A stretch of 64,000 bases of DNA from Clostridia bacterium (GCA_017508875.1 JAFWQX010000066.1:1584-65583); one strand, 5' to 3'; positions 24,237 to 41,774 are shown, counted from the first letter of the stretch. Notes: generated by a model from the sequence alone, not told the origin. A program made the numbers and translations.

Positions 24237-24337
24237 TTTAGTGCTTGTGTTTTTTCTTTTTTAATCAAAAAGGTATTGACATCCTATATTTCATTTAATA
24301 TAATGGTTTCACCGATTCGGTGAAAGGATGGATTTCA

Positions 24338-25402
24338 ATGAAACAAGGCTTGACTGATTTGCAGTACGAACAACTTGCCAAAGAAGCTTTTACAAAGCTA
24401 ATGAGCAGTATCCCTTTCGTATCAGATATTGAAATAATAAAAACTGGGTTGCAACGCGGGTTTGGTGACTTTCGCGCTGTCGTTCACTTTACGGATTCAA
24501 AAGCAGTTCAGGATTTTTACGTAGAGGTTAAATCCAACGGTGAGAAGCGGTACGCTAATATCTTTTGCATGGAAGCAAAACAGCACATCGATGATTTATG
24601 CTACTTGTTTATGGCACCTTATGTATCGGAATCAACATCTGAATATCTGCGTGAAAACAATCTGAGTTTTTTGGATTTAAGTGGTAATTGTTTTATTTTG
24701 ACAAGACGAATGATAATTCATGTTAGCGGAAAACCGAATCAGTTCATTGAGAAACGAGAAAAGAAGAACTATTTATCAAAGTCGTCTTCGGCAGCTTCTG
24801 CGGTTATCAGAACGATGCTGAATGATCCGGATAAATGGTGGAAAGTCAAAGAATTGTCTGAGGTTTCGAAGAAAGCTATCGGAACTGTTTCGAACGTAAA
24901 AGTTTTTCTGACAGAAAAAGATTGGATTGACGACCATATTTATCAATTCCGTTTAAAAAATTTCAAGGAGCTACTTTATGTATGGAGCAAAGACTATCAT
25001 AAAAAAAAATCAATAACAAAGGAATATTATTCTTTGTTTTCTTTGCCAGAACTTGAGACAGAAATATCAAAATGGAGCAAAACGCATGACCGCAATGCCG
25101 TACTTGGCGGTTTTTCCGCCGCGGCAAGATATGTGCCAACTGTTCGGTATAACAAGATCAACGTTTATGTTGCAGAAGAAGGATTGTACGAATTTGAAAA
25201 AGATCTTGCTTTGACGCCGGTTAGTTCGGGAGGAAATATTGTTGTGACGATCCCTCATGACGATACTCCATGTATGTTCAATCAGGAAATCAATGATTCT
25301 ATAGTTTCATCACCGGCACAAACCGTTATTGATTTACTTGGAATGCCAAACCGCGGAGAAGAGGCCGCCGAAGCGATCATATCTAAATACTATAGGAGGT
25401 AG
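24338..25402 (+). CDS. Hypothetical protein, possible AbiEi-like partner of downstream nucleotidyltransferase
   Basis: Low-GC gene directly upstream (5-bp gap) of AbiEii-like gene; no recognizable motif; assignment by gene context only. Confidence 0.35.
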   Translation: MKQGLTDLQYEQLAKEAFTKLMSSIPFVSDIEIIKTGLQRGFGDFRAVVHFTDSKAVQDFYVEVKSNGEKRYANIFCMEAKQHIDDLCYLFMAPYVSESTSEYLRENNLSFLDLSGNCFILTRRMIIHVSGKPNQFIEKREKKNYLSKSSSAASAVIRTMLNDPDKWWKVKELSEVSKKAIGTVSNVKVFLTEKDWIDDHIYQFRLKNFKELLYVWSKDYHKKKSITKEYYSLFSLPELETEISKWSKTHDRNAVLGGFSAAARYVPTVRYNKINVYVAEEGLYEFEKDLALTPVSSGGNIVVTIPHDDTPCMFNQEINDSIVSSPAQTVIDLLGMPNRGEEAAEAIISKYYRR

Positions 25403-25407
25403 TCAAA

Positions 25408-26247
25408 ATGGATAAGAATGATAATTTGAAAAAATCGACAGATTATTCTCAAGGTCAAAAAGATGCCGCCTATTCCGTACTTGGCGAAATTGTTAACTTA
25501 CTTGCCGATTATTCTGACAATTTACGTATTATCGGAGGATGGGTTCCAACTCTTTTGTATCCGGACAAAGAGCATATCGGATCAATAGACGTTGACGTTT
25601 TGCTGAATCAGCAAAAGATCCAAAAAGCCCAAGGGTATGAGAATATCAGACGAATTCTGACCAGAAACGGTTATACAAAACATCCTGATAAGTACTTTTC
25701 TTTCGTTAAAACCGTGAGTATTCAAGGGGTTGACTATTCTGTCGATGTTGACTTCCTTTCAGGGAAATACGGAGGAGACGGAGGAAATATCAGTAAACAC
25801 GTAGACGGAATCAAAACTCTTCCTGCTACCGCGGGGAACTTTGCGTTTGAGTTTCAGCCGCAAAAAGTCAAAATCGAGTATCAACGTCCGGACGGTGCAA
25901 AAGATTTTGGAAACGTCAGCGTGATTTCCGTCATTCCGTATATAGTTATGAAAACCGACGCACTTGGCAGAGGAAAGCCAAAAGATGCATACGATATTTA
26001 CTGTACAATCACATCATACCCCGGTGGTATCATAGCCCTGGCTAAAGAATTTCTGCCATACTCAAAAAAGAAGCTCATCCAAGAAATGTGCGAAAAACTC
26101 AAAGAAAAATTTGCATCGCCGGATCATGCCGGCCCAACCGATATAGTAGCTTTTTTGGACATTTCAGATGAAGATGAGATCCTGAGAATAAAGCAGGATG
26201 CGTATCAGCGCGTCAAATATCTGATAGATATTTTAGACAAAGAGTAA
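25408..26247 (+). CDS. Nucleotidyltransferase of AbiEii/AbiGii (DUF1814) toxin family
   Basis: RIIGGWVPTLLYPDKEHIGSIDVDVLL = GS-x(n)-D-x-D minimal NTase motif in AbiEii-like context; ~280 aa; strong RBS AGGAGG. Confidence 0.55.
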   Translation: MDKNDNLKKSTDYSQGQKDAAYSVLGEIVNLLADYSDNLRIIGGWVPTLLYPDKEHIGSIDVDVLLNQQKIQKAQGYENIRRILTRNGYTKHPDKYFSFVKTVSIQGVDYSVDVDFLSGKYGGDGGNISKHVDGIKTLPATAGNFAFEFQPQKVKIEYQRPDGAKDFGNVSVISVIPYIVMKTDALGRGKPKDAYDIYCTITSYPGGIIALAKEFLPYSKKKLIQEMCEKLKEKFASPDHAGPTDIVAFLDISDEDEILRIKQDAYQRVKYLIDILDKE

Positions 26248-26339
26248 TCAAAACAGAAAAGTGAACTCCTCCCTTGCGATACCATTGTACCGCGAAGGAG
26301 GAGTTCTGTAAAATGTGCGATTTCAGGCTTGGTCGGTCA

Positions 26340-26470
26340 GCAGATAAGCGGATGAAAATGCGCGCAGGGGCCGTAAATACTTGATTTTATTGTGGTATGG
26401 TCAAATCCGTTATCTCCACTCGGACCATACCGCTTTAGTGCTTTAAAGTGATGAATTTTCAGTTGGGATA
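26340..26470. repeat. Island cassette-boundary repeat, copy 1 (mini-ORF MRAGAVNT 26358-26384 + hairpin 26394-26431 + conserved tail)
   Basis: Aligns with copies at 27790-27900 and 30768-30895 and with tRNA-fMet 3' end/flank. Confidence 0.65.
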
Positions 26471-26579
26471 GAAGACAATGCAGACCTGAATCTTTACTTT
26501 TTTGTAAATTGGAGCGAATCATCTTTACTTTTCCGCTTTCTTGTGTTATAATAAGTAAAGATGAAAGTGAGGTCACACT

Positions 26580-27494
26580 ATGTTTTCATATAAAGGGTTG
26601 GAACAAAAACTGAAAGAGCGGGGAATTGGACGTTCTGATCTGACAAAACTGTTAGGGCTTTCTTCGCGGACGGTCGCAAAGGTAGGCAAAGGCGAGAAGC
26701 TTTCGCGCGGGGTTATGGAAAAACTTGCAGATTTCTTTGGGTGTTCTCCCGAAGAATTGTGCAGGGAGGTTTCGGACAATCCAATTCTGCAAATGCTGCG
26801 GGAAGAAAAAGAGGCGAAAATTTCCGGAGGGCTTTATCACGAGCTGCAGGTGCGTATGACCTACAACTCCAACCACATCGAAGGAAGTAGGCTCACGGAA
26901 GATCAGACACGATTGATTTTCGAAACGAACACGCTGAACGTCGGAGACGGCGTTCCGGTGGACGACATTTTGGAGACGGTGCATCATTTCCGCGCCATTG
27001 ACTACGTCATCGATTCGGCGGATCAAGTTCTTACCGAAGACATCATCAAGGAACTGCATTATATCCTCAAGCACGATACCAAGGATTCAACGCTTGATTG
27101 GTTCGCGGTAGGTGATTATAAAAAACGTCCGAACGTGGTTGGCGGTCGGGAGACGGCAAAACCGAAGGATGTACCGGTGCAGATGAAAAAGTTGCTTGAC
27201 GAATATAACGCGAAGCAGGATATAACGGTCAACGATATCATCGCTTTCCACGCCGAATTTGAAAAGATCCATCCTTTCCAGGATGGCAACGGTCGCGTCG
27301 GCAGACTTATCGCGCTGAAAGAATGTCTGCGGTTCTGTATCGTGCCGTTCCTCATCGAAGACAGCAAAAAGATGTTTTACTATAGAGGCCTGTCAGAGTG
27401 GGATAACGAAAAAGGCTGGCTCACCGACACCTGTCTTGATGGTCAGGATACATTCAGAAAATTGCTTGAAATGTTTGAAATAGAACTGGACTGA
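26580..27494 (+). CDS. Fic-family protein with N-terminal XRE-type HTH
   Basis: Fic motif HPFQDGNGRVGR; N-terminal LGLSSRTVAKVGKGEK HTH. Confidence 0.85.
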   Translation: MFSYKGLEQKLKERGIGRSDLTKLLGLSSRTVAKVGKGEKLSRGVMEKLADFFGCSPEELCREVSDNPILQMLREEKEAKISGGLYHELQVRMTYNSNHIEGSRLTEDQTRLIFETNTLNVGDGVPVDDILETVHHFRAIDYVIDSADQVLTEDIIKELHYILKHDTKDSTLDWFAVGDYKKRPNVVGGRETAKPKDVPVQMKKLLDEYNAKQDITVNDIIAFHAEFEKIHPFQDGNGRVGRLIALKECLRFCIVPFLIEDSKKMFYYRGLSEWDNEKGWLTDTCLDGQDTFRKLLEMFEIELD

Positions 27495-27789
27495 GAAGGC
27501 AATGTTTAGTCAAAAACAAAAAAGTTAAACCCAAAAACAATCAATTCTATATATTAGTAACAATTTGAAAGCAAGCAGGAAAAACAGCAACATTAGTGTT
27601 ATCAAACTTTTATGTAATGATGCAAATTATATTTTGAGGGAAAGAGCAAAAGGCCTTAGGAAACTTTAAGCGATAACGTAAATCTAAAAGAATGGCAGCC
27701 CTATGATTGAGAGCTGTCATTCTTTATTCTATCTTAGTATACTGTTTTCAAAACGTTTGGCATGGTGGTTCCTCTTATGTTTTTGTTAA

Positions 27790-27900
27790 TGATCCATGGA
27801 GGAAAAATGCGCGCAGGTGCCGTAAACACTTAGTTTTATTTGTGGTTTGGTCAAATCCGTTATCTCCACTCAGACCAAATCTTTGTAGCCACAAATCCAG
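27790..27900. repeat. Island cassette-boundary repeat, copy 2 (mini-ORF 27807-27833, hairpin 27844-27881)
   Basis: Same element; hairpin stem carries compensatory changes relative to copy 1 (tat/ata -> ttt/aaa). Confidence 0.65.
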
Positions 27901-27931
27901 TGCTTGGGTATTTGATCAAAGCCTTGAAAAC

Positions 27932-29080
27932 CTAATCCTCGTCATACGTTATTTCATAATGCAGTTGGAACGCTCCGGCAAGGTATCTGCGGCGGAGGTC
28001 GCTGTTTATCCATTCGATATTCTTTTGAAAAACGCTGCTGCCGCCGTTCCATTCGACCAGCTCGTCATGCCGCGGATCTTTCTTGTCTTGGAGAATACGG
28101 ATCAACTCTGAGAATCCTCCCGGGCCGCCGCAGTCCTCCGGTGGTGCGTCGCCTTTCAACTCCGTACATACCGGGGCGGGTAGATCAGCGTCTTCAATTA
28201 TCTCGACAAGCCGAATCTCGTGAGTCCACCCGTCGCCGAAATCATATTCGTAAGAAATGCGGTCGGTCTTAGAAAAGACCTCCTCAAGCGTGATCTCCCG
28301 CTCGTCAACGATTTCGCACCCGCGTGCGCCGTATATGTCATCATCTTCCGGAGACGGTATTCTTGCTAACTGTATCGGACGGCCACTTTTTGACCGCTTC
28401 AGGATAAACTCATGCAAGTGGTAATCTTTCCACAAAAACAAATTCTGAATGATATCGTGCAGATAGAATAGCGAAAAGTTCATAGGTACCGTAACGCATC
28501 TGAGGCAAGGCGTTTCAAGCTCAAGTGATATGTCAAAAACGCCGGCACGGGTACTGTAGAGCTTGCCATATTTTTCTTTAAGCGCACGTTCTTGCTCTTC
28601 GTAGGTTGCGTAGACGTCCTTTTTGTCGGAGGTGAACCTGAGATCATCATTGATCATAGGAAGCAGAACCGTTTGAAAACGATCGTCGGGTTCAAAACAG
28701 TTTTCGTAGCGTTCAATTCTTTGGCAGAACTTGTTTAATCTTGCAACGGAAGACCTATCGCCTGTTTTACACAAGCTTGCCGGGAAACAGCAATCGGCGA
28801 TATAGCGGTCGATCACCTCTTGGGAGATGCTTTCCGATGCGAGCATATTCCGTAATCCTGCCTCCAACAGTTCTTGCAACTTCTTTTTATCGCCTGCCGT
28901 GATCCCGTACAGCAGGAAACCGCATCCCGTCGAATCATTGGCGATCACAATGCACTTTCTGCGATTCATCACGATAAGATTTGCGGAAAAAGCAAAAAGT
29001 GGATCAATTCCTTTTGTGGCCTGTTCCGGAGATATGCCTAAATAATCAATCAGTTTTTTTGTGCATCCGATTTGTATCAT
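27932..29080 (-). CDS. pRiA4b ORF-3-like family protein (PRiA4_ORF3 domain) with N-terminal uncharacterized domain
   Basis: YEYDFGDGWTHEIRLVEI matches YxYDFGDxWxH signature; RBS AGAAAGGAAAGG. Confidence 0.65.
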   Translation of the reverse strand: MIQIGCTKKLIDYLGISPEQATKGIDPLFAFSANLIVMNRRKCIVIANDSTGCGFLLYGITAGDKKKLQELLEAGLRNMLASESISQEVIDRYIADCCFPASLCKTGDRSSVARLNKFCQRIERYENCFEPDDRFQTVLLPMINDDLRFTSDKKDVYATYEEQERALKEKYGKLYSTRAGVFDISLELETPCLRCVTVPMNFSLFYLHDIIQNLFLWKDYHLHEFILKRSKSGRPIQLARIPSPEDDDIYGARGCEIVDEREITLEEVFSKTDRISYEYDFGDGWTHEIRLVEIIEDADLPAPVCTELKGDAPPEDCGGPGGFSELIRILQDKKDPRHDELVEWNGGSSVFQKNIEWINSDLRRRYLAGAFQLHYEITYDED

Positions 29081-29118
29081 AATTGCCTTTCCTTTCTAAG
29101 ACTTAACAAAATCTCAGA

Positions 29119-30630
29119 TCAATGTTCAACTCTGTAAAACTTTTGATACTTGCTCTTAGGTTTCTCCGGTATCGTCATCGCGAGTTTGCCCGCGACGACA
29201 AGCGGTCTCAGGTATTTTGTAACAACGTAATACGGCGTTTGGATGTTCAGCATTGAGGCGATCTCTTCCTTGCTTTTCGGCTCTGTGCAAAAAGTAAGTA
29301 TCCGTTCTTCGACGGTGACGGATGGACTGCCGGGAACGATCGACGTTTCCTTTTTTGAAAACAGCGTCGCCTTGAAAATGCCTCTGTAGTTTTCAAACAG
29401 CGGCTCGGGAAGCCCGGCTTTCCTCATTGCTTCACGAATCGTCGGAATACCGGAAAAACGGTTTTCGGTATCGATCATGACTTCGAGATTGCTTGCGATA
29501 AACGGGTTTCTTGTGTCTCCCGGGACTTTTCCGAGATCGTTGATCGTCAGGCGTCCGTAAAGCCCGCCAGGATTTTCTACCACAAGTCTGTCGCGGAAAA
29601 GGATCACTCTGACAGGGGAGCCCTCGGTATGAACGCTGTAATCTCGGTGGATCAGAGCGTTCAGGATCAATTCGCGGACGGCGACGAGCGGATATTCCGG
29701 CTTATCGGTCCTGCGACCGTTTTCATCCACAACAACGGCGGTTTTTATGTTTCGCCTTACAAAGTTCATTGCGCCTTCCAGCATCTCCGGTATCGTTCCG
29801 TCAAAGCGCTTGTTGTCGATAAAGCGTTCTCCGGACGCTCCGAGGTCGCCAATCTCATATCCGTCTACGACCATAGCGGTGATACCGAGCTGGGGGAAAA
29901 ACGCTTGGGGATAATCGCCGACAAGCATCAGCCCGGCGACGGTAGGCTTGCCGTTATCCGTGAGCCCTTGAAGTTTCATGATTCTGAGATCATCCTGATT
30001 TGCGAGCTGCGGCTTTTCCGTTTTTAGCTTTGCAAAATACAAACTCAGTTTTTCGCGGCTGAGATCATCCGTTTCCGCGCGGTCCACGATTCGCAGCTCG
30101 TCGCGGATCTTCTTTTTATAGACTTCGTAACTGTAGATTTCATATTCGGTCATCGGCATATCCGCGTCGCCTACGCGAACATAAGAGCCGCGGATCCTGC
30201 CGGCTGGCTTATAGAAGCAAGGTTTATTTTCGGGCTCGCACTCCGGTATTTCGGCGCTTACGACCACTTTTCCTTCGTATTCGGCAACCGTAAAAAACGG
30301 GCGAACGACCGGTTCCATCTGCTCCGCGGCGTTTTTGACCTGGACCTGCAGATCCTGCGCGTCATATACGCCCGTAACCTCATACCCAGCCTTTTCATCA
30401 ACGCCGAAAATGATCGTACCGCCGTCATTCTGGTTGGAAAAGCTTGACAGAGTATCGTAAAGCTTTTTAGACGTGCCGCCCAACGCCTTTTTGACTTCCA
30501 CATACTGTTTTTCGCATTTCTGACGCTTCAGAGCGTCTATCAGTTCTATCAGATCTTTCTCTGTCAATGCTGTTGCTCCTTTCGTTATCACAATCTTATT
30601 ATAGTGTTTTTCAAAACGATTGTCAAACAT
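29119..30630 (-). CDS. Schlafen-like AlbA_2 DNA-binding domain + HATPase_c_4 (RecG-C-terminal-like) putative regulator
   Basis: N-terminal AlbA_2-like block (IVITKGATALTEKDLIELID..., FGVDEKAGYEVTGV), C-terminal NALIHRDYS GHKL-like motif. Confidence 0.7.
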   Translation of the reverse strand: MFDNRFEKHYNKIVITKGATALTEKDLIELIDALKRQKCEKQYVEVKKALGGTSKKLYDTLSSFSNQNDGGTIIFGVDEKAGYEVTGVYDAQDLQVQVKNAAEQMEPVVRPFFTVAEYEGKVVVSAEIPECEPENKPCFYKPAGRIRGSYVRVGDADMPMTEYEIYSYEVYKKKIRDELRIVDRAETDDLSREKLSLYFAKLKTEKPQLANQDDLRIMKLQGLTDNGKPTVAGLMLVGDYPQAFFPQLGITAMVVDGYEIGDLGASGERFIDNKRFDGTIPEMLEGAMNFVRRNIKTAVVVDENGRRTDKPEYPLVAVRELILNALIHRDYSVHTEGSPVRVILFRDRLVVENPGGLYGRLTINDLGKVPGDTRNPFIASNLEVMIDTENRFSGIPTIREAMRKAGLPEPLFENYRGIFKATLFSKKETSIVPGSPSVTVEERILTFCTEPKSKEEIASMLNIQTPYYVVTKYLRPLVVAGKLAMTIPEKPKSKYQKFYRVEH

Positions 30631-33101: not shown

Positions 33102-33863
33102 TCACTCGACGGTACAATCGAAATATTGTCCGTAGATATTTTTTATGCGCGAAATTTCATCCGGGCCAGGCGGAGATGTCGATGCGTATGCGTATTCTTT
33201 CCCCATTGCCGCATATTTTGCACTTCCGAGCCGGTGAAAGGGGAGCAGATCCACTGACTTCACGCCCGCGCCAAGTAATTGACCGCACATGATTTCCGCG
33301 TCGTTTTCTGACAAATTAAACCCCGGTACGAGGGGTACACGCACGCGCACGTTCTCGCCGCGCCCCGTAAGTTTGCTGATATTGTTAAGTACCGCTTCCC
33401 GGTCTCCTCCGACGATTTTTGCGTACTTTTCGCTGTCCGCAGTTTTATAATCGATAAGGAACACCTGAATGCGGCCGAGCAGCGGCACGAACCGCTCCCA
33501 CGGAACGCACGCGGCTGTGTCTATGACCGTATTAACGCGTTCTTCAGCGAGCAGATCTATAAGCCCGGAGAACTCTTCGCTCTGAAGCATCGGCTCGCCT
33601 CCGCTTAAAGTGAGACCGCCGTCGTCCCCGTAAAATTCTTTATCTTCCAGCACTTCCTCCGCTATTCTCTCGATGGGCAAAAATCTCCCGTGAACGATAA
33701 CTTTCCCTGCCTGCGCGTATACCAGGCGCTCGGGCAATGCCGAAACCGTCTCGGGGTTATGGCACCACGGACAATGCAGGTTACAGCCCTTCAGGAATAC
33801 CGTCGTGCGTATCCCCGGACCGTCACCAGTGCTGAAGTGCTGTATTTCCGATACGTTTAACAT
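33102..33863 (-). CDS. Glycyl-radical enzyme activating protein (radical SAM)
   Basis: CNLHCPWCHNPE (CxxxCxxC), DGPGIRTTVFLKGC N-terminal block; start ATG 33863 or TTG 33869. Confidence 0.85.
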   Translation of the reverse strand: MLNVSEIQHFSTGDGPGIRTTVFLKGCNLHCPWCHNPETVSALPERLVYAQAGKVIVHGRFLPIERIAEEVLEDKEFYGDDGGLTLSGGEPMLQSEEFSGLIDLLAEERVNTVIDTAACVPWERFVPLLGRIQVFLIDYKTADSEKYAKIVGGDREAVLNNISKLTGRGENVRVRVPLVPGFNLSENDAEIMCGQLLGAGVKSVDLLPFHRLGSAKYAAMGKEYAYASTSPPGPDEISRIKNIYGQYFDCTVE

Positions 33864-33895
33864 GTTCAAAATTTCTGGCGCCCTGGCGGCAATTA

Positions 33896-36121
33896 TCAGA
33901 GATCGTCGTGCTGTGTGCGGCTAAGTATGTCGAGCTGGACCTCTTTCGCGAGCGTAACGTAGAGGGCTGAGAAACCGGAGACGCGGACAACGAGGGAACG
34001 GTAGTTTTCAGGATGTTCCATCGCGTCGATCAGTATCTTGCGCGAAGTCGAATTGATCTGGACTTCCTGGCCGCCGCGGCTGAAATACACGCGGATCAGC
34101 TTAAGCAGCTTTTCACGCTTCCCGTCCGCGAAGGCGGAAGGCGCAAATTTCTGATTAACCACCGTGCCGCACGCGCAATTCGTGTAATCGGGTTTAGAGA
34201 CGCTCAAGAGCGTTGACGTCACGCCGCGTGTATCGCATCCGTACGTGGGGGAGGCGGCGTCTGAAAGCGGCTTCCCGGCGAGTCTTCCGTCCGGCGTCGC
34301 GCCCAGAGCCATACCGGCGTTGATATTAGAAGTATTGGCCGCCATAGCGGTATAAAAACCGCCGCCGTCGTACGTGTGATACTTTCTGAACTCATCGGAC
34401 AAATGCTGCGTATACCAGACGGCGTAGCGGTCAACGAAATCGTCGTTGTTCCCGTATTTCGGCGCCGCGAGGGCAAGTGCGTGAAGTTCACCGTGACCTT
34501 CGTAATTATCGCGCATTGCCTGCACGATCTCCGAAAGCTTAGCGGCGCGGTCAACGAATACTATCTTTTCTATTGCCGCGAGCGAGTCGCTGACGGTCCC
34601 GACGCCCATAAGCGCCGCGCCGTGTATAGACGGATATTTCGAGCCGCCGTTGTTTATATCCTTGCCGCGCTCGATGCAGAACTGGGCGAAAAGCGACAGG
34701 AAGGAGCTGTTATAGTTTTCCGGATCAGGCACCGACATATAGCGGTTAGCGGTATCGACGTAATCTTTTACGGCCTTATCGAGCAGCAACGTATAGATCT
34801 TCATAAAATCTTCCATTGACTGAATGTCGTCAGGGCTGCTGAGTCTTCCGCCCTGTGCATCGCTTTTCACGCCGCATTCCGCAGCCGCACTCTGCAGCGT
34901 CTCACGGTCCAGAAGCATTTTTTCAAGGTAATTTATCGGGTCGAAACGCCCGTCGTTCCACGGCGGCTGCTGGCCGGGCAGGAAGTTTTCGATGCATCCC
35001 ACCATGCAGTAATTGCGCACGTCTTTAAGGTCGTATCCGTACCGCAGGAGGGCGGGAATATTCGCCATATCGTTCATAAGCGCGGGGTAGCCGAGACCGG
35101 TCCCGATGACTTTAAGGCATTCGTCCAGAAATTCGTCGGGCGTGTCAGGGGCAATGCGTGCAGAAAGGTTAGGACCGGGCATGTTGACGTCGCGTACGGC
35201 GCGAAGCACACAGAAGCTGAGCTCATTGACCGCGTTGATTCCGTCGGCGTCAACGCCCCCGATGCAGATATTTACGACGTCGTCTCCACCGAGAATCCTC
35301 TTTTCACAAATCTTCGCGAACGTGTTGGCAACGAGCAGTTCGGCTTCTTCGAACGTGATATTGCCGGCGTCAATATCTTTTTTGAACAGCGGGTACAGAT
35401 ACTGGTCGATCCTTCCGAGCGCCATGGCGTAGCGGCCCTCGTACAGATAGCAGCTGTGGATCATCCATACGAGCTGGAGCCCCTGCGCGAACGTCTGAGG
35501 CGCACCTTCCAAAAGCGCCTCGCAGTTGCTTTTTATGAAATCAAGCCGTGCAACTCCCGCAGGGTCGTTATCGCATTCCGCGGCAAGTTTTTTTGCAAGC
35601 TCCCCGTGTGCCCGGATACGCTCCGAGAGCCCCTTAAGCGCCAGCTCCATACTAAGCAGAAAGTCAACAACTTCCGGATCGTCAGAATGCTGCGCTTTCG
35701 ACGCTTCTATTTTGCGTTTCAGGCCTGGAATTCCGACGGTAAGAACGGTCTCGAAATCCGAAGCAAAATGGTCGCTATGCGTAGAAAAATTTCGCTCGGG
35801 ATACATCGCGTTAAGCCTGGCGGACTCAGCCTTCTGCTCGGGCGTAAGGTCAATAAACAGCGGCCTTATGCTTCCGACGATCAGGTCGTTTTTATATATT
35901 TGAGGCCGCGGCAACGTAAACAGCGAATAGATACCGGCCGCCCGTCTTCCTGACGGCGTGTCGCGGACAATATCTTCATCTGCGCCTTTTTCTTTTCTTT
36001 CAAAATAGCCGTATCCGACCGAGCGGAACCAGTCAGGTCTGTACTCTCCTGAAGCAGGGGAAAGCATCTCCTGCTTTAGCGTCTCTAAACTGTTGTTCCC
36101 GGCAAATTCACTGATTTTCAT
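33896..36121 (-). CDS. Glycyl radical enzyme, PFL2/glycerol-dehydratase-like family (substrate unknown)
   Basis: ~740 aa; C-terminal glycine-radical motif VRVSGFSALY; active-site Cys loop region; start taken at ATG 36121 with AGGAG 10 nt upstream (GTG 36130 alternative). Confidence 0.85.
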   Translation of the reverse strand: MKISEFAGNNSLETLKQEMLSPASGEYRPDWFRSVGYGYFERKEKGADEDIVRDTPSGRRAAGIYSLFTLPRPQIYKNDLIVGSIRPLFIDLTPEQKAESARLNAMYPERNFSTHSDHFASDFETVLTVGIPGLKRKIEASKAQHSDDPEVVDFLLSMELALKGLSERIRAHGELAKKLAAECDNDPAGVARLDFIKSNCEALLEGAPQTFAQGLQLVWMIHSCYLYEGRYAMALGRIDQYLYPLFKKDIDAGNITFEEAELLVANTFAKICEKRILGGDDVVNICIGGVDADGINAVNELSFCVLRAVRDVNMPGPNLSARIAPDTPDEFLDECLKVIGTGLGYPALMNDMANIPALLRYGYDLKDVRNYCMVGCIENFLPGQQPPWNDGRFDPINYLEKMLLDRETLQSAAAECGVKSDAQGGRLSSPDDIQSMEDFMKIYTLLLDKAVKDYVDTANRYMSVPDPENYNSSFLSLFAQFCIERGKDINNGGSKYPSIHGAALMGVGTVSDSLAAIEKIVFVDRAAKLSEIVQAMRDNYEGHGELHALALAAPKYGNNDDFVDRYAVWYTQHLSDEFRKYHTYDGGGFYTAMAANTSNINAGMALGATPDGRLAGKPLSDAASPTYGCDTRGVTSTLLSVSKPDYTNCACGTVVNQKFAPSAFADGKREKLLKLIRVYFSRGGQEVQINSTSRKILIDAMEHPENYRSLVVRVSGFSALYVTLAKEVQLDILSRTQHDDL

Positions 36122-36233
36122 CGGATCCACACTCCTGTACCGGTAAAAGTTTCAAAAACTGAAACTATACCCGCTGATCTTCGGAAAGTATATAATAAAA
36201 AAAGATAAAATGCAAACAAAAACTCTTTTTCCG

Positions 36234-36690
36234 CCGGGCGGCGGATAACTTTGGCACACAAAGTGGTAAAATCGGGTTTTGTGTGCCAGGCGGGCGCTGT
36301 CTCTTAGCCGGGCAGCAGCTAACTTTGGCACACAAAGTGGTAAAATCGGGTTTTGTGTGCCAGCAGGGCGCTGTCTCTCAGCCGGGCAGCAGCTAACTTT
36401 GGCACACAAAGTGGAAAAATCGAGATTTGTGTGCCAGCCCGGCTCTATCTTGAGAACATCAGAAGGCGAAAAATGAACAATTCGTGGCACACAAATCGCC
36501 GAAATTGAGGATCGTGTGCCACTCCTCCTAAATCTCCGGGAAAAAATGAGAAATTCGTGGCACACAAATCGCCGAAATCGAGGATCGTGTGCCACTCCTC
36601 CTAAATCTCCGGGGGAAAATGAGAAATTCGTGGCACACAAATCGACGAAATCGAGGATCGTGTGCCACTTCTCCTCAACCTCAGCAGGAA
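36234..36690. repeat. Array of six ~65-73-bp tandem units, each containing a long palindrome (type A x3: TGGCACACAAA-N15-TTTGTGTGCCA; type B x3: GTGGCACAC-N21-GTGTGCCAC)
   Basis: Palindromes at 36252-36288, 36326-36362, 36399-36436, 36485-36521, 36558-36594, 36630-36666; spacers between them nearly identical. Confidence 0.8.
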
Positions 36691-36761
36691 AATGAACAAT
36701 CCGTAGCGCGAGAAGATGTCAATACAATCATATGCAAATTAAGGCATAGATATACTCGCTG

Positions 36762-36813
36762 CTTGTTGCTCGTTCCTCGTTCCTCGTTCATCGTTACTCG
36801 TTGCTCGTCGTTC
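36762..36813. repeat. Heptamer microsatellite TTNCTCG x7 (CTCGTTCC-type) immediately upstream of promoter
   Basis: ttgctcg ttcctcg ttcctcg ttcatcg ttactcg ttgctcg tcgttcc. Confidence 0.6.
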
Positions 36814-36820
36814 CGCCGTA

Positions 36821-36849
36821 TTGATTTTTCCTCCTGAAATCTTTATAAT
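36821..36849 (+). promoter_or_regulatory. Promoter TTGATT -17- TATAAT for partner-switching operon
   Basis: TTGATT 36821-26, TATAAT 36844-49. Confidence 0.5.
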
Positions 36850-36893
36850 TGAAACGTAAACAACTGGCATTGAAGCAGAAAGGGGAACGCCTT

Positions 36894-37190
36894 ATGAACA
36901 TAACAAAAAACAGAGAAGAAAACAAATTGACCGTCGCCGTCGAAGGAAAGATCGACTCTGTTACCGCACCGGAATTCGAAGAATTTATCAGGGAAAATAT
37001 TGACGGCGTGACCGAACTGACGTTCGATCTCTCGTCGCTCGACTATATATCTTCCGCAGGACTGCGCGTGCTTCTGCTTACCCAGAAACGCATGAATGCA
37101 CAGGGTACGATGAAGGTTACAAACGTCAATGAAACAGTGAGTGAGATTTTTGAAGTTACCGGTTTTTCTGACATACTCACTATCGCTTAA
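36894..37190 (+). CDS. STAS-domain anti-sigma-factor antagonist (SpoIIAA/RsbV-like)
   Basis: 98 aa; DLSSLDYISSAGLRVLL with conserved phosphorylatable Ser context; RBS AAAGGGGA. Confidence 0.8.
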   Translation: MNITKNREENKLTVAVEGKIDSVTAPEFEEFIRENIDGVTELTFDLSSLDYISSAGLRVLLLTQKRMNAQGTMKVTNVNETVSEIFEVTGFSDILTIA

Positions 37191-37217
37191 GCGGATGCTT
37201 TTAATAAGGAGCGCACA

Positions 37218-39356
37218 ATGCCCGAAAAAAGTGTAAGAGAGATGAATAAATACGAGAGGCTGCGTTATTCGCTCGCTTCCCGTACGTTCCATACTGCGAT
37301 AGGCGGAGCTGCGATCCTGGGGATCGTTGCCCTGGTCATCGGCCTCGGATGGTACGCTTATTCATACTCGAGCCAGCTTATCAAAGGAGCGTTCGGCGTT
37401 TCGAAGAACGCCCAGATGATAATATCGAAAATCATCGATCCGACCGATCTGGGGCGCGACGTGATGGATCTGTACAGATTGGTTCCTGAAGAAACCCGCG
37501 GTGACGGGGATGACGCGGAATACCTTTCACTGTACGACTCGTTTAAAACGCGGGAGGATTACGTACAGATATTGTCGATCCTTAAAGATTTTCGCGATTC
37601 CAGCACTGTCAGCGACGTGTACTACGCTATGTACGACGAAGAAACGGGTATGCTGGTATATTTTGCGGATCCGGACGAAGACGAAGACACTGTATGCCCT
37701 ACGGGCTTTTTTGAGACCGCCACGAAGAAAGAACTCAATACGTTCCTTCGCTGGAACGGCAAAAAAACGCCTTATTATATAGAAAAGACCGAAAGATACG
37801 GCTGGATCTGCACGACCGGAATAAGTGTAAAGGATCAGGACGGAAGCATTGCCGGATTCATACTCGCGGACGTAACGCTAAAAGAAGTGGGAAGCGGAAT
37901 GCTCAGGTTCCTGCTCCAGTACGGAATATCGATGTTCGTACTCATAAATCTTGTCGCGATATTCATGACGCGCCACATGAAGAAAAAGCTGGTAAAGCCC
38001 ATAAACGAGATCGCTGAGGCTGCCGAAGCGTATCTGAAAGATAAGAAAGACGGCGCAAGGGTGACGGATCATTTCTCGAAACTCAATATAAATACGGGTG
38101 ACGAAGTTGAGAATCTTGCCCTTATTATGGCAGATATGGAAACCGACCTGGCGGATTACGAGGACGATCTTACCAGAGTTGCCGCGGAAAAAGAGCGCAT
38201 CAGCATCGAACTTTCGCTCGCGACAAGGATCCAGGCGGATATGCTGCCGAATATTTTCCCCGCATTTCCTGAAAGAAGCGAGTTTGACGTGTTTGCGTCA
38301 ATGAAACCCGCGAAAGAAGTTGGCGGCGATTTTTACGACTTCTTCCTTATTGACGAAGACCACCTCGGACTCGTAATGGCTGACGTATCGGGGAAAGGTG
38401 TCCCCGCGGCGCTGTTTATGATGGTATCGAAGATACTTGTCCAGAACATAGCGATGTCAGGTAAAAGCCCGGCGGAGGTCATTAAGACTATCAACGCTCA
38501 GATCTGCGCCAATAACCGCGAAGAAATGTTCGTGACGGTGTGGTTCGGAGTGCTGGACGTTCGCGACGGCACGCTTAGGGCGGTCAATGCGGGCCATGAA
38601 TATCCGATGCTTAAGAAGCCCGGCGGCGACTTCGAACTGGTAAAAGACACACACGGATTCGTTGTGGGCGGATTCGCATCTTCAAAATACAAAGAATATG
38701 AACTGAAGCTTGAACCCGGTGCGAAGCTGTTTTTGTATACCGACGGAGTTACGGAAGCGTCTAACGAAGATTCCGTGCTTTTCGGAACGGGGCGAACGCT
38801 CGAAGTGCTGAATAAAAATAAAAATGAGGAGCCGGAGAAGGTCGTTCAGAGTGTAAACAATGCGATCTCTGAGTTTTGCGGAAGCGCTCCGCAGTTCGAT
38901 GATATTACGCTTATGTGTCTCGAGTATTTCGGGAAAGGGAACACGGAAATGAAGGAAATTACTGTCGAAGCCAAAATTGAAAATATCCCTGAAGTCACTG
39001 ATTTTGTCAACGGCGAACTTGAGAAACTTGAGTGTTCACTTAAGGCGCAGATGCAGATAGACGTGGCGATAGACGAAATGTTCGGCAACATTGCCCGCTA
39101 CGCATACGGCGGGGGCGCGGGAAACGCGACAGTTCAGATTCGCGCAAAGAAAGAACCCAAAGCGGTGGAACTGACGTTTATTGACGGCGGCACCCCGTAC
39201 GATCCTCTGAAGAAAGACGATCCGGATATCTCTCTCGGAGCTGACGAGAGGGAAGTCGGAGGGCTCGGGATCTTCCTGGTCAAAAAAACGATGGATGATA
39301 TGAAATACGAATATAAAGACGGGCAGAACAGACTTACGGTAACCAAATTGCTGTGA
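37218..39356 (+). CDS. Membrane sensor - PP2C (SpoIIE/RsbU-type) phosphatase - HATPase_c (RsbW/SpoIIAB-type kinase) fusion protein
   Basis: Two TM segments flanking ~180-aa extracytoplasmic domain; PP2C motifs GGDFYDFF, DVSGKGVPAALFM, TDGVTEA; C-terminal GHKL region VELTFIDGG...GGLGIFLVKK. Confidence 0.8.
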   Translation: MPEKSVREMNKYERLRYSLASRTFHTAIGGAAILGIVALVIGLGWYAYSYSSQLIKGAFGVSKNAQMIISKIIDPTDLGRDVMDLYRLVPEETRGDGDDAEYLSLYDSFKTREDYVQILSILKDFRDSSTVSDVYYAMYDEETGMLVYFADPDEDEDTVCPTGFFETATKKELNTFLRWNGKKTPYYIEKTERYGWICTTGISVKDQDGSIAGFILADVTLKEVGSGMLRFLLQYGISMFVLINLVAIFMTRHMKKKLVKPINEIAEAAEAYLKDKKDGARVTDHFSKLNINTGDEVENLALIMADMETDLADYEDDLTRVAAEKERISIELSLATRIQADMLPNIFPAFPERSEFDVFASMKPAKEVGGDFYDFFLIDEDHLGLVMADVSGKGVPAALFMMVSKILVQNIAMSGKSPAEVIKTINAQICANNREEMFVTVWFGVLDVRDGTLRAVNAGHEYPMLKKPGGDFELVKDTHGFVVGGFASSKYKEYELKLEPGAKLFLYTDGVTEASNEDSVLFGTGRTLEVLNKNKNEEPEKVVQSVNNAISEFCGSAPQFDDITLMCLEYFGKGNTEMKEITVEAKIENIPEVTDFVNGELEKLECSLKAQMQIDVAIDEMFGNIARYAYGGGAGNATVQIRAKKEPKAVELTFIDGGTPYDPLKKDDPDISLGADEREVGGLGIFLVKKTMDDMKYEYKDGQNRLTVTKLL

Positions 39357-39397
39357 CCTGCACAAGCTGCACTTCAAATAAAAAGGAGACAGAAGAT

Positions 39398-40570
39398 ATG
39401 AAATATAAAGAAAACGGCAGTGAATTGACAATAAATTTTGAGGGGCACATTGATTCCGCAAACGCGAAGGAGATAGAAGACGAGATCAGCGCCATAAAGG
39501 CAAAGGCACACCCGGAAAAACTTGTCATTGACTGCGAGAATCTTCAGTATATATCAAGCGCCGGACTCAGGATAGTTCTGCGCCTGATGAAAGAGATCAA
39601 ACCTATTTCTATCGTCAACGTCTCTTCCGAGGTTTACGAGATATTCGATATGACCGGTTTTACGGAGATGGCGGAGGTGCACAAAGCGTACAGAAAAGTG
39701 TCCGTCGACGGCTGCGAAATTATCGGAAAAGGTGCGAACGGAACCGTGTACAGAATTGACCGCGACACGATCGTAAAGGTCTACGTGAACCCGGATTCGC
39801 TGCCGGAAATCCAGCGCGAACGCGAGCTTGCCCGAAAAGCATTCGTGCTCGGTATCCCGACCGCTATACCGTACGACGTTGTCCGCGTAGGCGAAGGCTA
39901 CGGTTCGGTTTTTGAACTGCTCAGCGCAAAAAGCCTCGCTGAGATCCTCTCCAAAGATCCCGGCCAGTTCGACAGCGTACTTAAATACAGCGTGGATCTG
40001 CTCAAAACGATCCATTCGAAAGAACTTCCGAAAGGCGAGATGCCTGACTGCAAAGCCACGGTGCTGGGATGGGTGGAATTTCTGAAAGACTACCTTCCGG
40101 AAGCGCAATATAAAAAACTCAAGGCGCTCGTGGAGGCTGTCCCCGAGGATAACCATATTATGCACGGCGATTATCATATGAAAAACGTCATGCTGCAGGA
40201 CGGAGAAGCGCTGCTGATAGATATGGACACGCTGTGCCTCGGCCACCCGGTGTTCGAATTCGGCTCGATTTTTAATTCGTATATCGGATATTCTGAACTC
40301 GATACGGAAAACGTCAGAAAATTCCTCGGCATTCCTTTTGAAACCGCGAAACAGATATGGGACAGGACGGTGCGTATGTATTTCGGAACCGACGACGAGG
40401 CATTCATTCAGGCGGTAAAGGACAAGGCGAAGGTCGTAGGTTATACGAGAGTTATGCGCCGCGCGATTCGCCGCGGGTCAATGGACGATCCCGCCACGCT
40501 TGCTGTCGTCAATAACTGCAGAAAGCATTTTGACGAACTGCTTGCGCGCCTTGACACACTTGAATTCTGA
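39398..40570 (+). CDS. STAS domain fused to aminoglycoside-phosphotransferase/choline-kinase-like (protein-kinase fold) domain
   Basis: N-terminal STAS (LQYISSAGLRIVLRL); kinase-like Gly loop GKGANGTVY, Lys in VKVY, catalytic HGDYHMKNVML, IDMDT metal-binding loop. Confidence 0.7.
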   Translation: MKYKENGSELTINFEGHIDSANAKEIEDEISAIKAKAHPEKLVIDCENLQYISSAGLRIVLRLMKEIKPISIVNVSSEVYEIFDMTGFTEMAEVHKAYRKVSVDGCEIIGKGANGTVYRIDRDTIVKVYVNPDSLPEIQRERELARKAFVLGIPTAIPYDVVRVGEGYGSVFELLSAKSLAEILSKDPGQFDSVLKYSVDLLKTIHSKELPKGEMPDCKATVLGWVEFLKDYLPEAQYKKLKALVEAVPEDNHIMHGDYHMKNVMLQDGEALLIDMDTLCLGHPVFEFGSIFNSYIGYSELDTENVRKFLGIPFETAKQIWDRTVRMYFGTDDEAFIQAVKDKAKVVGYTRVMRRAIRRGSMDDPATLAVVNNCRKHFDELLARLDTLEF

Positions 40571-40583
40571 GAGGGGCGCCGCC

Positions 40584-41774
40584 ATGAAGATATACGTGCG
40601 AAAAAAGAAGCCGAAGCTTTACGGCCTGCTGATATTCTCGATAGTGTTTGTGATCGCCGTCGCGGTCCTTTATGCGATCTCGCAAAGCACGAGCTTTAAT
40701 GCGCTGCCTTACATAACGGTATCGATGCCGCTGTATTTTGCCGCAGTGCTTGTTATACTTGTGATATCGCTCAAAAGGCAGATCGAGTACAATCCTTATT
40801 CGTACAATACGATCTATTATTTCGGCTTTTCGCTGTTCGTATTGTCCGTGCTCGTCACCCATATTGCCGCGGCGATCAGATATTTCATGAACACCGGGGA
40901 ATACGGATTCCGCGATACGGCCAGAATCATACTCTGGTCTGCGCGGCAATACATGATCGTAACGTTTCCGCTGCTCGCTGTTTTCTCGATAGGCCTTCTG
41001 GTCTCGAATATTGTCCTAATTAAGAAAGAGGGGAAGAGCCTCGCCAATACTCTGGGCATTCTGCTCGCCGTAGCACTGATGGCGGGAGAGGGAGTGCTTA
41101 TCTGGCTCGGAAGCATTGCGTCGGGTCCTTTCGGTATCGCGATCAATCTTTTATGCGCCATTTTTGTTTACGCGGAATGTATGCTGTTCGGGGCGATTTT
41201 CGCTGACATTCTGGTGGCAACGCACGTTCCGGCGTATGACAAGGATTATATTCTGATATTGGGCTGCAAGGTAGCGAAAAACGGCGAACCGATGCCGATA
41301 CTTCAAAAACGTATTGACCGCGCCATCGCTTTTTATGACGAGCAGGTGAGCAGGACGGGGAAAGCTCCCGTATTCATTCCGTCCGGCGGAAAAGGGGCCG
41401 ATGAGCCGTTGTCCGAAGCGGAATGCATGCGCAATTACCTGATCGCCAAAGGGTTTACCGATGAGCAGATAATAATGGAAGACGAATCGAAAAATACCAT
41501 ACAGAACATGCGTTTTTCCTTTAAAAAAGTTCCCGAAGAGGCGAAATGCGCCTTTTCAACTTCCGGATATCACGTTTTCAGAAGCGGCATAGCAGCTAAC
41601 AGGGCGCAGAAATTCAAGGCGGAAGGCGTAGGCGCTCCGTCCAGATGGTATTTCTGGCCGAACGCTTCGGTGAGAGAATTCATCGGACTGCTTACGGGCC
41701 ACAGGGGAAAGCAGCTGCTCGTGCTGTTCGGGCTGATCGCGGCGTACCTGCTGCTGAGCTTTCTGGCCGGATGA
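40584..41774 (+). CDS. Polytopic membrane protein with C-terminal DUF218 (YdcF/SanA/ElyC-like) domain
   Basis: 6 predicted TM helices then ILGCKV...PILQKRIDRAIAFY...FIPSGGKG...ECMRNYL (DUF218 pattern). Confidence 0.6.
   Translation: MKIYVRKKKPKLYGLLIFSIVFVIAVAVLYAISQSTSFNALPYITVSMPLYFAAVLVILVISLKRQIEYNPYSYNTIYYFGFSLFVLSVLVTHIAAAIRYFMNTGEYGFRDTARIILWSARQYMIVTFPLLAVFSIGLLVSNIVLIKKEGKSLANTLGILLAVALMAGEGVLIWLGSIASGPFGIAINLLCAIFVYAECMLFGAIFADILVATHVPAYDKDYILILGCKVAKNGEPMPILQKRIDRAIAFYDEQVSRTGKAPVFIPSGGKGADEPLSEAECMRNYLIAKGFTDEQIIMEDESKNTIQNMRFSFKKVPEEAKCAFSTSGYHVFRSGIAANRAQKFKAEGVGAPSRWYFWPNASVREFIGLLTGHRGKQLLVLFGLIAAYLLLSFLAG

Follow-up and report, generated by a model that had tools for sequence, protein, structure and literature searches.

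The tandem palindrome array between two divergent operons in a 64,000-nt stretch of DNA from a Clostridia bacterium (GCA_017508875.1, JAFWQX010000066.1:1584-65583; the whole stretch is referred to here as the window) is best explained as one copy of a composite repeat family that had not been described before, is carried by uncultured rumen Clostridia, and is similar in kind to miniature inverted-repeat transposable elements, or MITEs, and to BOX elements. In our estimation, with a probability of about 0.85, this copy has been inserted between the promoters of a glycyl radical enzyme (GRE) operon and of a partner-switching operon headed by a STAS gene, and it is polymorphic within the species. 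A preliminary description of the window had proposed a device belonging to this particular region, namely a centromere, a repressor array or a set of local hairpin RNA genes, which does not agree with the occurrence of the array at dozens of unrelated loci. We conclude that the array is not a regulatory device built for the neighbouring operons, because other strains of the same species lack this copy and because the family is dispersed.

Two tandem arrays abut in the window, three type A units of 74 nt and three type B units of 73 nt, which together cover positions 36233-36695. One repeat finder placed three copies of the 74-nt unit at 36233-36454, where copies 2 and 3 are 92% and 81% identical to the first, and three copies of the 73-nt unit from about 36465 to 36695 at 81-93% identity. 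Tandem Repeats Finder (TRF) reported a period of 74 at 36233-36438 (2.8 copies, 93% matches) and a period of 73 at 36470-36695 (3.1 copies, 92% matches). The repeat finders confirm the six tandem palindromes in two subtypes of three copies that had been described, with a measured period of 73-74 nt in place of the 65-73 bp given before. The palindrome geometry, TGGCACAC-N21-GTGTGCCA with a length of 37 nt, is identical in all six units (36252-36288, 36326-36362, 36400-36436, 36485-36521, 36558-36594 and 36631-36667; start-to-start spacing 74, 74, 85, 73 and 73 nt), and the centres of 15-21 bp that were thought to differ by type are replaced by a single N21 between 8-nt arms. Perfect preservation of the arms, which had been claimed for the whole array, applies to the 11-nt arms TGGCACACAAA/TTTGTGTGCCA of the three A units. 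In the B units, on the other hand, complementarity is limited to the 8-nt arms TGGCACAC/GTGTGCCA, where the left side reads TGGCACACAAATCG and the right side GGATCGTGTGCCA.

The word TGGCACAC occurs 12 times in the window, all 12 inside the array, compared with a chance expectation of 0.69, and none of 100 shuffles reached this number. The palindromes lie 131-546 nt upstream of the GRE start codon (ATG at 36121) and 227-642 nt upstream of the STAS start codon (ATG at 36894), roughly as given before. The sequences between them are themselves repeated at 81-93% identity. A CRISPR array, which had already been dismissed, was rejected by us as well, since the “spacers” are repeated and conserved across loci; no cas domains were found among the neighbouring genes.

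A homologue search with the GRE led to a 99% identical protein on contig L109, where the divergent STAS/GRE locus of the window recurs; its spacer measures 227 bp and has both promoters, without the array. When the window and L109 are aligned, the flanks are about 99% identical up to 36222, and a local alignment places the return of homology at 36783. Three contigs from other samples (L115, L116 and L118), which encode an identical STAS protein, share this empty allele, in which both promoters are present and the spacer measures about 225 bp. A further contig, L117, begins 87 nt upstream of STAS with the allele-specific sequence of the window, and is probably a second filled allele that was split by the assembler at the repeat. 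Within the species the locus is therefore represented by two filled and four empty alleles, and the comparison of orthologous regions that the preliminary description had suggested speaks against a locus-specific reading. More distant orthologous loci, with GRE proteins of 82%, 72% and 71% identity, have spacers of 158-230 bp and back-to-back promoters, likewise without the array. In every allele both promoter-like sites are intact, and the element sits exactly between them, widening the spacer from about 225 to about 770 bp. Any effect of this copy on the GRE and STAS promoters is one that we infer. The natural strain polymorphism, which shifts two back-to-back promoters about 560 bp apart, lends itself to testing the expression of both operons.

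Copies of the array were found far beyond this locus. A scan of one genome per species for the exact pattern TGGCACACAAA-N18-GTGTGCCA gave 33 loci, about 23 of them on different contigs of two metagenome-assembled genomes (MAGs), often at contig ends. These MAGs, 'Mageeibacillus sp. UBA1255' and 'Clostridia bacterium RGIG10101' (yak rumen), have 11 or 12 such contigs each, and the few matches in other phyla, which are single in each case, look like chance. A metagenome scan added 75 further loci, nearly all of them in rumen assemblies. The preliminary description had named a genome-wide search for the palindrome as a check, and what this search returned is a dispersed element, whose canonical copies end in terminal repeats of insertion sequence (IS) type. 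Dispersal and IS ends are the outcomes that the description itself had named as refuting its reading. The similarity of the window to the other loci is confined to the array (67-89% identity), and the flanking genes have no match. The palindrome and the terminal repeat were absent from the viral contigs searched, plasmids gave no match except for a simple repeat, and a literature search with the palindrome words returned nothing relevant.

About 86 arrays follow one grammar: one to seven A modules at 74 nt, a step of 85 nt, and one to three B modules at 73 nt. In all of them the order is A then B and the polarity is fixed. Copy number differs at orthologous loci with the same flanks in the two MAGs, with A3B3 at L001 and A1B1 at L009. 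The flanking proteins are unrelated; 78 non-redundant proteins were assigned to 108 Pfam families, none of which occurs in more than two proteins (examples are a tRNA synthetase, ribosomal protein S2, EPSP synthase and PlsX), and a regulon or shared neighbour function was rejected on this basis. By the same Pfam assignment, no transposase, DNA-binding protein or REP-associated tyrosine transposase (RAYT) gene recurs beside the arrays. Gene orientation was called with a crude open reading frame (ORF) caller. Array flanks face gene 5′ ends and 3′ ends at a ratio of 53:29. At the A end there are 29 divergent versus 13 co-directional genes, and at the B end 24 co-directional versus 16 convergent genes; a rule that the array always lies upstream of a co-directional gene was rejected on account of this 24:16 ratio.

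These data allow a judgement on a native cis-regulatory or centromere-like array, in which a multimerising DNA-binding protein (nucleoid-associated, ParB/KorB-like or a repressor) on six phased palindromes would control both divergent operons. The palindromes are indeed located between two divergent promoters, their period of 73-74 bp is by arithmetic close to 7 helical turns, and their arms are far more conserved than the rest of the unit. However, the four empty alleles and all distant orthologous loci keep the promoters and the gene order without the array, and the same arrays adjoin the unrelated genes described above. Pfam detected no ParB/KorB-like gene or transposase among the ORFs scanned, which were those at 20-60 kb of the window, and the helix-turn-helix proteins in this part (AbiEi, Fic+HTH_26) have no link to the array. 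We therefore regard such an array as very improbable.

In many copies of the family, conservation reaches past the arrays and takes in a head of about 95 nt as well as a tail of about 125 nt. Many copies start and finish with GGCTCTTTTCCTG[G/T]TTCCGTGAA, about 23 nt long, in inverted orientation, and these canonical copies are bounded by ISL3-type terminal inverted repeats (TIRs; GGCTCTTTTCCTGKTTCCGTGAA). Direct repeats of 7-8 bp are present at the junctions of three TIR-bounded copies: TTTCGACA in L078 (8/8), TTTCGTGC in L077 (offset by 1 nt) and TTAGGAA[C/G] in L002 (7/8). For comparison, the ISL3 insertion sequence ISArsp7 has the right inverted repeat GGCTCTTCGCGTTTCGTGGTGAAT and an 8-bp direct repeat (PMC6305408), and in Microcystis aeruginosa a MITE ascribed to ISL3 terminates in GGCTCTTCG and is accompanied by direct repeats of 8 nt (PMC11448079). 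The present family shares with ISL3 elements and their MITEs termini that start with GGCTCTT and end with GTGAA, as well as, in three copies, junction direct repeats of 7-8 bp, and it resembles the MITEs in being non-coding, intergenic and multi-copy. It differs from them by its large internal tandem arrays with sizes of more than 1 kb, by the lack of canonical ends in the window copy, and by the fact that the 809 kb sampled yielded no autonomous ISL3 element to match it. On the basis of the end similarity and the three target duplications, mobilisation of the canonical members by an ISL3-type system appears likely.

The elements, of which there are dozens, are all intergenic, measure from 264-319 bp up to more than 1 kb, and contain no consistent ORF. 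The smallest array-bearing copy, L077 (319 bp), contains one palindrome with an A-type left linker and a B-type right linker. From this hybrid unit it follows that A corresponds to a duplicated [left linker + palindrome] and B to a duplicated [palindrome + right linker], and the origin of the two modules from opposite halves of one core accounts for their fixed polarity and shared arms. With the arms excluded, unit similarity within arrays is 0.79 (A) and 0.77 (B) compared to 0.69 and 0.70 between loci, which is consistent with amplification of the units in place. Elements with different cargo and other short tandem repeats are bounded by the family's inverted repeats as well (L108:997-1260, L033), and the superfamily is therefore a mosaic.

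Bacterial interspersed mosaic elements (BIMEs) of Enterobacteria are mosaic tandem clusters of repetitive extragenic palindromes (REPs), with two palindrome types and conserved linkers. The present family resembles them in exactly these features and in its location outside genes, and a REP/BIME-type element mobilised by a RAYT, that is, by an IS200/IS605-like tyrosine transposase, would also be extragenic, palindromic, dispersed and clustered in tandem in two module types. In contrast to REPs, the canonical copies have long TIRs and, in some cases, 8-bp target duplications, and the association with RAYTs that marks REPs was not seen: no Y1 transposase occurs among the 25 commonest Pfam families of the 78 flanking proteins, a list that does not include singletons. 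The palindrome centre is 15-21 nt long, and there is no conserved GTAG-like 5′ tetranucleotide. REPs are usually found at gene 3′ ends, whereas the 53:29 ratio given above points towards 5′ ends. Taken together, a RAYT-mobilised element is most improbable.

We propose the following course of events. A putative ISL3-family transposase would move the element in trans, generating 8-bp target-site duplications. A canonical copy consists of TIRs of about 23 nt, the head of about 95 nt, a core palindrome TGGCACAC-N21-GTGTGCCA and the tail of about 125 nt. This core would be amplified in place, with [left linker + palindrome] giving the 74-nt A module and [palindrome + right linker] the 73-nt B module, presumably by slippage or unequal recombination, as has been proposed for boxB of the pneumococcal BOX elements. 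The arrays have the form A(0-7)B(0-3), with fixed polarity and with copy numbers that vary between orthologous loci. The window copy is A3B3 with a “type 2” tail and heptamers (36223-36782), placed between back-to-back promoters.

The window copy is not canonical. Its left terminus, CTCTTTTTCC, may be a TIR remnant, given that it is similar to the beginning of the family TIR and that L095 carries GCTCGTTTCC at the matching position, but it may also resemble the TIR by chance. Its right part consists of the “type 2” tail and a heptamer tract, as in L095, L055 and L090. The element in L095 runs about 75 nt further to a degenerate right repeat (ending in AAGAGAGCC), a stretch that the window copy lacks. 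Because the canonical inverted repeats are missing, the window copy is probably immobile now. The first approximately 30 nt of its heptamer tract are found only in the filled allele, and the last approximately 26 nt have a decayed counterpart in the empty alleles. Short tandem repeats of 6-14 nt with locus-specific sequence were seen inside or adjoining many family members (the window at 36753-36808, L095, L055/L090, L015/L059, L108/L032, L108:997-1260 and L033:1704-2274), for example CTCGTTC in the window, and CTCTTAA, CAATTTG, GCCGTC, ATAATTGCAAATGG and CTTCATCCAG.

Several observations weigh against our interpretation. Both ends of the window copy were checked and the canonical inverted repeat is missing from each, and a clean target-site duplication was not found around this copy. 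The filled and empty alleles differ by a replacement, with 560 nt in the former versus 15 nt in the latter. At the junction, a 13-nt sequence (AATGCAAACAAAA) is duplicated in tandem in the empty alleles, imperfectly so in L109, and present as one copy in the window; this duplication could be an excision footprint or a coincidence. The empty alleles also contain a short decayed heptamer tract at the junction. A simple insertion and an old insertion with later imprecise loss are both compatible with the alleles. Just three of about nine TIR-bounded copies show target duplications, which are absent in about six. An autonomous ISL3 element with matching ends (an IS-sized TIR pair) was not found in the 809 kb sampled, which is a weak negative, and the 25 commonest Pfam families of the 78 flanking proteins (singletons not listed) include no transposase family. 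Finally, near-invariant arms amid 20-30% divergence are unexpected for a purely selfish, decaying repeat and imply a function.

Among described systems, BOX elements offer the closest architecture. In Streptococcus pneumoniae and S. suis these are built as boxA - boxB(n) - boxC, with an additional boxD and alternative boxE/boxF ends in S. suis (PMC3049150). Both BOX elements and the present family are composite intergenic repeats with fixed end modules that form IS-like inverted repeats. Both have tandem internal modules, of more than one type and each with a predicted stem-loop, whose number varies between strains at the same locus; both have alternative ends and are dispersed beside unrelated genes. 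There is no sequence similarity and the host clade is another one, so the likeness is architectural and does not indicate homology. The modules of the present family are longer (73-74 nt vs. 45 nt) and, unlike those of BOX, each contain a 37-nt palindrome with near-invariant arms of 7-8 nt and form ordered arrays of A then B. The termini of the present family are clearly ISL3-like, with 8-bp duplications in some copies, whereas the likeness of BOX to the ends of ISSpn2 has been described as weak (PMC3049150). Correia elements (Correia repeat enclosed elements, CREE) of Neisseria, and other MITEs with promoters or integration host factor (IHF) sites, are comparable as mobile intergenic repeats near promoters that are able to deliver protein-binding sites or promoters. 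Correia elements differ in that each is a single unit whose inverted repeats are 26 bp long and which has a TA duplication (PMC10969869). By analogy, co-option of the invariant half-sites would be a candidate role in the present family.

Could the conserved arms be the sites of a binding partner? A set of 227 unique units gives a conservation of about 99% for the two 8-nt arms, compared to about 82% for the centres and 68-76% for the linkers. Unit detection tolerated at most one mismatch per arm, but the conservation is real, because units at the expected period are almost never missing from the arrays. Positions 1-7 of the arms are practically invariant, and position 8 shows a compensatory change from C:G to T:A in 7 palindromes; the covariation term of RNAalifold for 26 diverse A units was -0.03. 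In the B units the positions that adjoin the arms, AAAT at the left and GATC at the right, are conserved without being complementary. The constraint on the arms is therefore on sequence and not mere pairing, which speaks for a sequence-specific protein or for strong conversion more than for a plain hairpin. The near-invariant arms of 7-8 nt are most likely half-sites for such a protein, to judge from this pattern. A DNA-binding partner, as assumed in the preliminary description, is thus reasonable for the family, but not as a device of this divergent region. A protein partner, if there is one, would make the family a case of a transposon that distributes phased binding-site arrays. A more far-reaching version holds that the TGGCACA half-sites, 23 nt apart and repeated every 73-74 bp on one helix face, are high-affinity sites for a host factor or, at B, for sigma-54 holoenzyme, and that the family is a mobile regulatory or nucleoid-organising module. 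We consider this rather unlikely. If true, the family, instead of being inert selfish DNA, would spread ready-made promoter cassettes or phased arrays with several binding sites to positions upstream of unrelated genes, and the GRE and partner-switching operons would be linked to that factor in some strains only.

The same arm data bear on an RNA reading, either small hairpin RNAs that form a family or an array of structured RNA, in which the units would be transcribed and the palindrome would form an RNA stem-loop for stability, processing or termination. Single units fold better than shuffled controls (plus-strand z of -2.7 for A and -3.1 for B, with weaker values on the minus strand), and the compensatory change at arm position 8 would fit a stem; invariant, non-covarying positions 1-7 and the non-complementary positions next to the B arms do not. 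Some canonical heads (e.g. L045:560-640, L047 and L069) contain a weak sigma-70-like TTGAGT-17-TATCAT reading into the array, which in L066 (TATCAC) falls below the scan threshold; activity of this site would mean that transcription runs through the palindromes of canonical copies. The head is missing from the window copy, whose array has no sigma-70-type promoter-like site. The plus strand (36283-36297) and the minus strand (36500-36476) of the array have one weak terminator-like hairpin each, which does not exceed the 1.2 expected from shuffles. The unit size of 73-74 nt prompted a tRNA and Rfam check, in which ARAGORN found no tRNA and no Rfam match was obtained (best 19-24 bits vs. gathering thresholds of 41-249). 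An RNA family is accordingly improbable. The preliminary description had also suggested that the B units encode a repeated MxNSWHTNRRN mini-peptide. This idea was abandoned: the start codon is ATG in 81 of 94 B units and ACG in some, the ORFs range from 3 to 104 amino acids with 24 of them having 11, a Shine-Dalgarno-like core precedes 26 of the 81, and “WHTN” is simply the translated invariant arm.

The conserved B arms also recall a sigma-54 promoter. In a mobile cassette of this kind, the B modules (TGGCAC-N5-T[T/C]GC) would act as -24/-12 promoters firing in the A-to-B direction, with the more symmetrical A palindromes upstream as enhancer-binding-protein sites. The preliminary description had dismissed sigma-54 for want of TTGC, which was too quick: GG-N10-GC is present in 79/102 B units compared to 8/125 A units, with TCGC in 38 and TTGC in 31 B units, the latter as a perfect TGGCAC-N5-TTGC, and the motif reads correctly in the A-to-B direction only. 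In the window, TGGCAC-N5-TCGC is the reading of both B1 and B2, which thus keep the GG-N10-GC distance of such promoters, and with one intragenic site they compare to an expectation of 0.2. The intragenic match to TGGCAC-N5-TYGC (25124-25138, minus strand) lies inside the AbiEi-like ORF and is probably due to chance. The A modules are situated 85 nt or more upstream of the B modules, and upstream activator sites of sigma-54 promoters are typically at such distances. On the other hand, the window B units have TCGC or, in B3, TCGA, not TTGC, and such a promoter would have no use for the second, inverted arm that follows 21 nt downstream. The gene beyond the B end is co-directional in 24/40 non-redundant cases by the crude ORF caller, a bias that is not significant. 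The RpoN box, GAFTGA and GESGTGKE (Walker-A) were absent from six-frame translations of the 809 kb sampled from these organisms, and the scanned window ORFs include no sigma-54 or activator gene. Other evidence for the use of sigma-54 was not found, and a promoter cassette has only a small chance of being correct.

If the array is a copy of a MITE/BOX-like family, as we favour, such arrays in MAGs of rumen Clostridia should be annotated as a repeat/MITE family and not as operators, CRISPR-like arrays or small RNA genes. Copies of the family also explain many contig breaks in these assemblies. The features of the window copy and its surroundings are listed in Table 1.

Table 1. Features of the repeat-element copy and its flanks (window positions, unless a contig is named).
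Feature	Position	Strand	Remarks
Repeat-element copy, 560 nt	36223..36782	+	Absent from same-species empty alleles; L109 has 15 nt instead
Left terminus CTCTTTTTCC	36223..36232	+	Resembles first 11 nt of family TIR (GGCTCTTTTCC); fused straight to first A linker
Three type A modules, 74 nt each	36233..36454	+	TGGCACACAAA-N15-TTTGTGTGCCA; GC-rich linker GCCGGGCGCTGTCTCTCA...TAACTT
A/B junction, then three type B modules, 73 nt each	36455..36695	+	Linker CTCCTCC..CTCCGG(A)nATGAGAAATTCG
“Type 2” tail, degenerate fourth unit (GTAGCGCGAGAAGATGTCAATACAATCATATGCAAAT...)	36696..36752	+	Common to family copies L095, L055 and L090
Heptamer tandem tract, CTCGTTC-like, about 6-8 copies	36753..36808	+	From repeat finders and allele alignments
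13-nt duplication in empty alleles	L109:1360-1600 (reverse complement), L115:2740-3005, L116:705-970, L118:620-885		Opposite window 36210-36800
GRE gene	33896..36121	-	Flanks element, outside it; PFL-like/Gly_radical (Pfam); ATG 36121
Sigma-70-type promoter-like site, GRE operon	36187..36216	-	Native: outside insertion, identical in empty alleles
Sigma-70-type promoter-like site, STAS operon, TTGATT-17-TATAAT	36821..36849	+	Native; also in empty alleles and L110
STAS anti-sigma-antagonist gene	36894..37190	+	Flanks element, outside it; Pfam; ATG 36894

Two minor observations concern other members of the family. In L075 (3150-5144) and L071, a 263-amino-acid ORF lies between two arrays in direct orientation (A7B3 ... 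ORF ... A1B2), which may represent a composite arrangement; the ORF has no Pfam match even at E 0.1. In L001 (6380-6470) and L009 (3380-3420), 13 nt of the A linker GCTGTCTCTTGATC agree with the inside end of IS50 (CTGTCTCTTGATCAGATCT). This likeness of the A linker (CTGTCTCTTGATC) was judged to be probably coincidental, as other copies differ at those positions.

Pfam confirmed the gene context given in the preliminary description. The minus-strand operon encodes a PFL-like/Gly_radical protein, a radical-SAM activase and an alcohol dehydrogenase (ADH), and the plus-strand operon encodes STAS, a SpoIIE+HATPase_c_2 fusion and STAS-APH. Relatives down to 71% GRE identity (L111, L112 and L114) keep the gene order of window 33102-41774, in which GRE-activase-ADH diverges from STAS, the SpoIIE/HATPase fusion, STAS-APH, DUF218 and a zinc-ribbon protein. 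The pairing of the GRE cluster with the partner-switching module may be functional. Further away, a low-GC island (0.40-0.49) at 24320-30630 carries genes of defence or mobile type, namely AbiEi antitoxin-like, Fic+HTH, PRiA4_ORF3/DUF6933 and Schlafen AlbA_2/HATPase_c_4. PRiA4/DUF6933 genes, together with AAA_14/DUF4143 genes, are also located near the GRE cluster of L114, and Schlafen-AlbA_2 proteins also flank arrays in L005/L021 and L102/L106.

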